Positions 56,739 through 57,620 of a stretch of 64,000 nucleotides of DNA are shown here, in pieces. The stretch spans positions 128,001 to 192,000 of the IMG/VR virus record IMGVR_UViG_3300035698_013504. The stretch is one strand, 5' to 3'. This DNA comes from a virus. Taxonomy: Duplodnaviria; Caudoviricetes. Numbering within the stretch: position 1 is the stretch's first letter; each line of letters begins with the position of its first letter. The notes under the pieces were generated by a model. That model had not been told where the DNA came from. It searched no databases and saw only the letters and a list, made by a program, of their open reading frames with translations. Position numbers and translations under genes: made by a program.

Positions 56739-57263
56739 GTGAACGACCACTACATGGTCAAATGGGAAGGTGAAGGAGGGGATACGCACTACGGAACGGT
56801 TGACGCATATAGTGAAGATGCGCAAGAGTTACGAGAGCGTAAGGTCCTTCTTATCGACGACGCGGTCTTGCATCTGCAGTACGAGGTGCCCGAGGCTAGC
56901 GTCACAGACATTCCGTTTTCGTGGTCACAGCCCGACGAGTATACTTCATATGTCACCTCCGCGTTTAACGCAGCGGTAGCACGTGCAGCATCGTTGGGTA
57001 AAGGACTGAAACCGGGTAAGCTACTCCGCACACAAGTGGGGGACGGCTATGCTTGGTACATTGTTACGAAGGTAACACGAACGCAGGCAAACATCGAATG
57101 GCGAGGATTCTGCCCAGATCATTGGTATGATCAGGTCCTCGGGGCTGGCGGGTCTTTTGATAGAAGTATTATCGCTAGGCTTGTACAGCAACGTGAGTAC
57201 GTATATAAACATCAACCCCAAACCGAAGCATTTGCCACAAAGGAACAACAAGATGAAGGTTAA
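56739..57263 (+). CDS. Hypothetical phage protein
   Basis: SD AGGAG; VGDGYAWY.V motif. Confidence 0.55.
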   Translation: MNDHYMVKWEGEGGDTHYGTVDAYSEDAQELRERKVLLIDDAVLHLQYEVPEASVTDIPFSWSQPDEYTSYVTSAFNAAVARAASLGKGLKPGKLLRTQVGDGYAWYIVTKVTRTQANIEWRGFCPDHWYDQVLGAGGSFDRSIIARLVQQREYVYKHQPQTEAFATKEQQDEG

Positions 57264-57540
57264 GATCTTCCCCCTCGCCGCTACGCCCCTGGAAGTTGAG
57301 CTCCCCGACACCATCGAGAACATCTCGGTAAAGCACATCTTCAGCCAGACCGGCACCGGCCGCGTCTTCAACGAGGACGATAACACCATCATGGGCGTTA
57401 TCCAGGCTCGCCACGGTTCCTTCGAGAACTACGGCTCCGTTCACGTGAACGGCAACGTCGCCACCCTCGCCACGTCCCTCCGCAACGGCGACAACATCAT
57501 GATCGTCCCGCGCGTCCAGGGCGGCCGTCTGGTCGGCTAA
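57253..57540 (+). CDS. Ubiquitin-like (beta-grasp, ThiS/MoaD-type) protein with Gly-Gly followed by a 4-residue extension
   Basis: 95 aa; V.VNG...LRNGDNIMIVPRVQGG|RLVG; strong codon bias. Confidence 0.88.
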   Translation: MKVKIFPLAATPLEVELPDTIENISVKHIFSQTGTGRVFNEDDNTIMGVIQARHGSFENYGSVHVNGNVATLATSLRNGDNIMIVPRVQGGRLVG

Positions 57541-57570
57541 GGCGGCAGTCAATCCGGCAGTTAGACGATG

Positions 57571-57620
57571 GACCGTCACCCACCCACCGCTGCACGAGTG
57601 GGTGGCGGTCTTCGTTGGTT
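57571..57620 (+). terminator. Hairpin/leaky terminator between Ubl and E2 genes
   Basis: GACCGTCACCCA/TGGGTGGCGGTC 12-bp stem with a weak TTCGTTGGTT tail. Confidence 0.55.

Follow-up and report, generated by a model that had tools for sequence, protein, structure and literature searches.

The window analyzed here is the whole 64,000-nucleotide stretch between positions 128001 and 192000 of one 200,903-bp phage genome. It carries, on the plus strand, a putative ubiquitin-like conjugation cassette with the gene order ubiquitin-like modifier (Ubl), E2-like protein, JAMM/JAB peptidase, and small ThiF-type E1. The Ubl gene (57253 to 57540) encodes a 95-amino-acid (aa) protein, a predicted pro-form, whose beta-grasp assignment comes from its sequence, a structural model, Foldseek, and profile matches. 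A Shine-Dalgarno (SD)-like AAGGA, read directly at 57240 to 57244, lies 8 nt ahead of its ATG, and close relatives of the locus have GAAAGGA at the equivalent position. After a 96-nt gap that contains a stem-loop (57570 to 57611) comes the E2-like gene (57637 to 59421), recognized by motif and fold; its most likely start is the ATG at 57637, with the SD GGAGA at 57627 to 57631. The JAB open reading frame (ORF; 59024 to 61144) has an uncertain start and is recognized by its invariant motif, the JAMM codons lying at about 59801 to 59842. The E1 gene (61092 to 61865; Pfam ThiF) overlaps the end of the JAB gene, and the three enzyme genes as a group overlap or abut, without gaps between them. A large hairpin 3' of E1 (61909 to 61964), which ranks third in strength among the 196 ORF-end hairpins of the phage, closes the cassette.

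The AlphaFold2 (AF2) model of the Ubl (predicted local distance difference test [pLDDT] score, 89) is a beta-grasp in which the last strand spans residues 81 to 86 and residues 87 to 95 are unstructured, the mean pLDDT of residues 91 to 95 being 54. Foldseek matched this model best to SAMP1, MoaD, and ubiquitin (probability of about 1.0, E-values of 1.5e-3 and weaker). Pfam ThiS covers residues 61 to 91 and ends at profile position 76 of 76, which is the GG; the NCBIfam archaeal MoaD and SAMP1 models gave weak matches of the same kind. The scores fall below the curated cutoffs (22.2 versus 22.5 bits for Pfam ThiS, 22.2 versus 49.5 for TIGR01687, and 13.5 versus 60 for SAMP1), and the Ubl is related to the ThiS, MoaD, and SAMP families yet outside their curated limits. 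A word-indexed homologue search with the Ubl returned only the query itself. With phmmer, 1.84 billion representatives were searched exhaustively; this returned 26 proteins including the Ubl, with about 16 same-type homologues of 82 to 99 aa. Among viral and metagenome contigs, a search anchored on E1 located cassettes in which a Ubl gene precedes E2, in 12 loci and in 23 loci. When a profile of 29 family members was compared with the PDB, it matched SAMP2 (5lda_B, 1.1e-6), PF1061, and MoaD, and each alignment stops at the chain-terminal GG.

Some homologues (P0132, P0134, P0135, P0138, P0139, P0141, P0142, and P0144) contain 2 to 4 head-to-tail Ubl repeats per polypeptide, and each repeat closes with ...KGG, ...KGN, or ...EGG, an arrangement that recalls polyubiquitin. 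A candidate giant poly-Ubl (P0123; 1852 aa, 10 matched stretches) was rejected as a low-complexity false positive.

The initial annotation, made from the DNA letters alone, had described an extreme C-ending codon bias in the Ubl gene, and codon counts bear this out. Third-position C (C3) reaches 0.68, the top value among 235 ORFs, against a genome mean of 0.318 (standard deviation, 0.06). No 94-codon window in any other ORF of the phage attains this level (maximum, 0.617; binomial p of ~6e-13), and in the two-fold NNY codons plus Ile the Ubl gene uses C over T at 27:1, versus a genome-wide ratio of 0.65. Behind the Ubl in the C3 ranking come ORFs with matches to a virion structural protein and to a major-head-like protein; among these C3-rich ORFs, the large virion genes deviate in the same direction as the Ubl, with C up and G and A down. 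A general GC enrichment derived from a foreign donor would not be expected to produce this combination. The same tendency was found among relatives: over 33 non-redundant cassettes, which served for the comparison of both C-ending (NNC) codons and hairpins, the NNC fraction of the Ubl gene is above that of its locus in 28 (Stouffer Z of 7.1, or 6.6 with the window left out). Examples are L001, a very AT-rich locus, with 0.65 versus 0.07, and L088, with 14:0.

An antisense ORF of 134 aa (57175 to 57579, minus strand) spans the entire Ubl gene; in all likelihood it is a mere consequence of C-rich third positions on the sense strand, not a gene. Outside the window, at genome positions C1:63060-63985, two high-C3 ORFs adjoin each other, and the second aligns with the C-terminal portion of a major head protein in PHROG; they may represent one capsid gene split by a frameshift or an ORF-calling error. 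A strong hairpin lies 3' of this pair.

In the gap between Ubl and E2, nucleotides 57570 to 57583 pair with 57598 to 57611 around a 14-nt loop. The initial annotation had noted a 12-bp hairpin with a weak U-tract ahead of the E2 start. We find 14 pairs, of which 12 are Watson-Crick and 2 are G-U, and "weak U-tract" is a fair label because the 12 nt after the stem (57612 to 57623, read directly) hold 6 U. With G-C at 9 of its 14 pairs, the stem is GC-rich in the manner of a canonical intrinsic terminator, while the loop of 14 nt and the 6 U in 12 nt depart from the canonical loop of 3 to 8 nt and U-run of at least 5 in 8. At -28.5 kcal/mol, the best 50-nt window ranks among the top 0.1% of windows within the surrounding 14 kb and is ninth among 196 plus-strand ORF ends of the phage.

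Hairpins at this position recur in the related cassettes. The Ubl stop is followed by a hairpin with a z score of -3 or lower, measured against its own locus, in 10 of 13 loci and in 17 of 20 (27/33 together). For other ORF ends, the rates are 9.6% and 8.7% (Mann-Whitney p of 1e-5 and 2e-11), and in 14 of the 20 loci the post-Ubl hairpin is the strongest of its locus. The hairpin sequences are unrelated between lineages, and most relatives have a canonical short loop and T-run at the equivalent position. In the loci inspected, the SD of the next gene lies within ~10 nt after the hairpin, leaving no room for a separate promoter; transcription of E2-JAB-E1 must therefore pass the hairpin. With a long loop and few U, the hairpin of the window is a weaker form of this conserved element and may act more as a 3' stabilizer than as a terminator. 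In either capacity, the Ubl cistron should exceed the enzyme cistrons. The excess of modifier over E2, JAB, and E1 that had been proposed at the outset thus gains indirect support from the comparison of hairpin position (27/33) and NNC usage (28/33), from which we infer a protein ratio in favor of the Ubl.

Hairpin architecture also varies among close relatives. In the near-identical cassettes L080 (~5640-5690) and L093 (~5634-5684), the inner part of the hairpin is apparently inverted: arms and loop are reverse-complemented between the two cassettes, with the stem preserved. Five loci (L034, L041, L044, L055, and L057) have a second terminator-like hairpin with a T-run ~20 to 60 nt upstream of the Ubl start, immediately ahead of the Ubl SD. 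A Ubl cistron bracketed by hairpins in this way could yield a monocistronic mRNA that is processed and protected at both ends, or it could be an inserted gene that came as a self-contained unit.

Several observations weigh against a role of codons and hairpin in raising Ubl output. The hairpin of the window, with its long loop and sparse U, may terminate poorly; a consensus terminator scan does not call it; and the whole 103-nt intergenic stretch is modest when set against shuffled sequences (z of -1.66), the signal residing in the local stem. Hairpin strength and codon bias do not correlate across the phage (Spearman, -0.07), and on this basis the idea that hairpins mark highly expressed genes as a general rule in the phage was rejected. 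Ubl NNC enrichment is absent from several AT-rich relatives (L048, L050, L053, L015, and L020). Finally, the link from codons to expression rests on only two annotated virion genes.

An alternative explanation for these features could be that the hairpin simply delimits a unit or is left over from the insertion of a gene and that the codon bias stems from foreign origin or a nucleotide-level constraint. Strong hairpins do follow many genes of the phage, the composition of the ORF upstream of Ubl is very different (C3 of 0.24), and the relatives with a terminator-like hairpin upstream of Ubl as well look as a self-contained inserted gene would. Nevertheless, we consider this explanation unlikely. 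A boundary or relic does not account well for a hairpin position kept in most of the diverse cassettes despite unrelated hairpin sequences, nor for an E2 SD directly after the hairpin, which makes the enzyme genes of the loci inspected dependent on read-through. The coupling of C up with G down, as in the virion genes of the phage, differs from general GC enrichment, and the NNC enrichment recurs across phages of very different base composition, L001 being the example given above.

The C terminus of the Ubl reads ...VPRVQGG-RLVG. The masking of Gly90-Gly91 by RLVG, another feature of the initial annotation, is plain from the ORF: the two Gly codons (GGC GGC, 57520 to 57525) are followed by codons for Arg-Leu-Val-Gly (57526 to 57537) and a TAA. 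Among 28 same-type Ubl sequences, the P[KR]V[EQD]GG column is conserved, and pairwise identity is 62% over the 30 residues up to the GG and 8% after it. Tail lengths are 0 (one sequence), 1 (nine), 2 (ten), 3 (two), 4 (two), 5 (three), and 8 (one), and a 12-residue tail is found in L021. The final tail residue is A in nine, R in seven, L in four, and G in two, the others having C, S, V, Q, M, or no tail. Tails as different as MARCA, TA, LAERA, MRKGA, and IA occur on nearly identical mature domains, and members P0136, L001, and L102 have GG as their exact C terminus. A conserved GG followed by hypervariable, sometimes absent tails is what one would predict if a conserved reactive Gly carried a removable cap. 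Family conservation and the alignment with SAMP2, PF1061, and MoaD mark Gly91 as the predicted mature C terminus, and the assignment of RLVG as a C-terminal propeptide is well supported by analogy and conservation.

A candidate for the removal of the cap is encoded in the cassette itself. The JAMM motif of the JAB protein, E...HxH...S..D, is complete, with E194, H260, H262, S270, and D273 invariant in 13 members, and the best solved relative of the protein is the Caldiarchaeum Rpn11-like peptidase 6fjv (E-value of 0.008). JAB accompanies E1 in most loci with upstream sequence. Comparison thus indirectly supports the view, put forward in the initial annotation, that the precursor needs JAB cleavage: the GG is conserved, the tails are variable, the JAMM motif is intact, and BilC/BilA and Caldiarchaeum offer precedents. 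By analogy with these precedents, the JAB of the cassette would be the protease that cleaves the Ubl.

Two other features of the JAB gene were noted. Read from its first GTG, the ORF overlaps the acidic low-complexity C-terminal tail of the E2-like protein by ~400 nt in another frame (59024 to 59421); probably just one of the two frames is translated there, and both the JAB start and the true E2 end are therefore uncertain. Behind the JAB core, residues ~448 to 506 and 619 to 658 give two weak matches resembling DnaJ-type CxxCxGxG zinc fingers (Pfam PF00684, 3.7e-4; NCBIfam DnaJ, 6e-5).

The cap could instead be trimmed by a host carboxypeptidase or another protease, leaving JAB as a deconjugating isopeptidase only. 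Short, variable tails make an unspecific exopeptidase that stops at GG conceivable, but we regard this as quite unlikely given that the JAB gene lies beside E1 in so many loci with its catalytic motif invariant and that both characterized JAMM partners of pro-Ubls do the trimming themselves. The tandem Ubl repeats with GG/GN junctions point the same way; if they are cut at these junctions, an endopeptidase such as JAB would be needed.

A model without any precursor, in which activation takes place at the true terminal Gly95 and Gly90-Gly91 belongs to a longer flexible tail, is very unlikely in our estimation. Activation at Gly95 is conceivable, and counts as a point against the capped precursor, in that the Ubl tail does end in Gly, as in homologue P0130, which ends GG-VLVG; another homologue contains RLVA, and a single terminal Gly is used by some relatives and by BilA. 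However, only 2 of the 28 tails end in Gly, the conserved column is the GG that aligns to the terminal GG of SAMP2 and MoaD, and Gly95 lies 9 residues past the last strand, about twice the 5 that lead to Gly91. The conserved GG with its hypervariable tails likewise argues against activation at Gly95.

The E2-like protein comprises a UBC-like core with HPH at residues 282 to 284 and Cys291, followed by Cys-rich and acidic C-terminal extensions; a dense Cys/His region lies behind the core. HPH-x6-C-x-G is invariant in 13 family members. The AF2 model of the core (pLDDT, 81.5) matches UBC, UEV, and RWD chains, with Foldseek probabilities of up to 0.95 and VIA Z values of 5 to 7.2 over ~115 to 125 residues, which is under the level that excludes coincidence. 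Single-sequence and profile searches of the PDB with the E2-like protein gave no significant match, and the E2 assignment is made because of the invariant HPH motif together with the moderate UBC/UEV fold match. No separate E3 is recognizable in the cassette.

The E1 matches Pfam ThiF at 1.4e-12 and has a GAGAIGS nucleotide loop; its invariant candidate Cys212 sits in LPCSAR, inside the adenylation domain. We found 304 E1 homologues, the closest ~50% identical. A single-sequence E1 scan of viral contigs gave no match, whereas an E1 alignment query succeeded. Members of the family are 217 to 257 aa long, about the size of ThiF (251 aa), and profile matches in the PDB include ThiF, MccB, and UBA5. 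From this length and the alignment, the E1 appears too small for a separate CYS domain. Assignment to a PRTRC cassette was considered and rejected: PRTRC_ThiF scores 25.3 bits against a cutoff of 144.75, and the other three proteins have no PRTRC match. In the PADLOC library, only CBASS E1-E2 models matched, over the nucleotide-binding (Rossmann) region of the E1.

That the Ubl is instead a ThiS/MoaD-type sulfur carrier, activated in ThiF-like manner for thiolation and not a protein tag, is the least probable alternative. In its favor, the families that the Ubl matches best are ThiS, archaeal MoaD, and SAMP (each under its curated cutoff), the E1 resembles ThiF and MoeB, and SAMPs and Urm1 are themselves dual-function. 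Against it, the cassette holds an E2-like protein with an invariant HPH...C and a predicted UBC-like fold as well as a JAMM peptidase, and no rhodanese, sulfurtransferase, ThiG/ThiH, or MoaE was found among the neighboring ORFs scanned.

Taking the evidence as a whole, we consider it probable that this phage Ubl-E2-JAMM-E1 conjugation cassette makes a capped Ubl precursor whose expression is set for excess over its enzymes. A SAMP/MoaD-like beta-grasp modifier would be translated as a pro-form in which Gly91 is the residue to be adenylated and RLVG is a disposable cap. The cap would be removed prior to E1 activation, most probably by the JAMM peptidase of the cassette; the capped form would be blocked from E1, and the trimmed Ubl would be activated and then passed to the Cys of the E2-like protein. 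Codons drawn almost entirely from the C-ending class most used in the virion genes of the phage would give high output, and partial termination or 3' protection at the terminator-like stem-loop would keep the Ubl far above E2-JAB-E1. A capped modifier that is apparently in large excess over a coupled enzyme trio argues for stoichiometric consumption of the tag, which would narrow the search for its targets.

A wider reading, which we offer tentatively and hold to be doubtful, is that phages of many lineages carry their own, hitherto undescribed ubiquitin-like tagging kit, with the tag made in amounts like those of virion proteins, a conserved read-through terminator fixing a high ratio of tag to enzymes, and the cap acting as a safety catch until the peptidase has been made. 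If tag amounts indeed reach virion levels, the tag would presumably be attached in bulk and stoichiometrically, to virion components or to a large number of host proteins, and not serve catalytic signaling.

The Ubl ATG overlaps by 11 nt the stop of a 174-aa ORF (56739 to 57263) whose composition is unusual for the phage (A3 of 0.27, beside the C3 mentioned above), and codon usage switches abruptly at the Ubl boundary. Neither Pfam nor PHROG gave a match for this ORF, and the 23 viral-contig loci searched contain no counterpart of it. Two adjoining paralogous Cys-rich ORFs lie directly 3' of the cassette, one at 62580 to 63329 and one of 256 aa that runs from 63354 past the window end; neither has a family match or a counterpart in the same loci. 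None of the neighboring ORFs (MYG1-like, 149, 137, 174, 152, 249, and 256 aa) recurs in these 23 loci, which suggests a cassette limited to four genes. With blastn, the cassette had no match among GenBank phages, an Rfam search of 57100 to 57750 gave no family match, and a promoter scan called no sigma-70-like promoter near the Ubl gene.

Several known systems offer parallels to the cassette. Eukaryotic ubiquitin, SUMO, and NEDD8 precursors have C-terminal extensions that are removed to expose the GG, and special gene arrangements of the polyubiquitin type give a high modifier supply. For processing, eukaryotes use mostly cysteine proteases, and for dosage, gene fusions or repeats; the phage cassette, in contrast, apparently achieves dosage through codon choice and an operon-internal terminator. 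In bacteria and phages, operon-internal intrinsic terminators and 3' stabilizer hairpins set unequal output of co-transcribed genes. The present hairpin resembles these in being a stable GC-rich stem-loop directly 3' of a high-demand cistron with read-through-dependent genes downstream; it differs in the weak U-tract and long loop of the window, the relatives being canonical in this respect.

Archaeal SAMP systems have no E2, and their genes are scattered. The SAMPs are nevertheless the closest relatives of the Ubl in sequence and fold (PDB 5lda for SAMP2 and 3po0 for SAMP1), with GG after the last strand, and their partners UbaA and JAMM1 correspond to the small ThiF-type E1 and the JAMM peptidase of the cassette. 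A precedent for the cap is the pro-ubiquitin of Caldiarchaeum subterraneum, from which a 9-aa propeptide is removed by an Rpn11/JAMM homologue and whose pro-form is refractory to E1 (PMC5654768; PDB 6fjv and 6fnn). The two systems are alike in having a short propeptide past a conserved GG and a JAMM peptidase encoded beside the E1/E2 genes. The Caldiarchaeum system, however, belongs to archaeal cells and includes a ubiquitin-type Ubl as well as a RING E3; the phage cassette has a SAMP/MoaD-like Ubl, no recognizable E3, and large Cys-rich extensions on E2 and JAB.

The gene order Ubl, E2, JAB, E1 is also that of Bil (BilA Ubl, BilB E2, BilC JAB, and BilD E1). According to two reports, BilC cuts BilA behind a conserved Gly, beyond which homologues of BilA can have as many as 9 extra residues (10.1101/2023.09.26.559546; 10.1101/2023.09.04.556158). 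Bil is a bacterial antiphage defense locus, while the present cassette and its relatives lie in a phage genome and in viral contigs. The mobile catalytic CYS domain that one report describes for the Bil E1 (10.1101/2023.09.26.559546) seems to have no match in the ThiF-sized E1 of the cassette. No Bil chain was among the PDB sequence or profile matches of the cassette proteins, no direct comparison with Bil sequences having been made, and the literature passages searched mention no intercistronic terminator in Bil. We conclude that the cassette, although not a demonstrable member of Bil, would function in the manner of Bil and of the cascades in archaea and eukaryotes.

The literature searched, coverage of which is incomplete, yielded no description of a complete phage-encoded Ubl-E2-JAB-E1 cassette; Iyer et al. 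(2006) describe phage tail modules with Ubl-JAB pairs only, in addition to bacterial operons. JAMM preprocessing of Ubls is already known, and the predicted phage precursor would add a further member that is not new in kind. In contrast, the conserved layout of Ubl, terminator, and enzymes with expression-type codon bias in phage cassettes appears to be an undescribed, new regularity. The Ubl-terminator-SD-E2 signature is a possible search key for metagenomes, in which a small, fast-evolving Ubl gene is easily missed. To our knowledge, studies of prokaryotic ubiquitin-like conjugation have until now treated it as a means by which bacteria fight phages; in the present cassette, the same chemistry would stand on the phage side.

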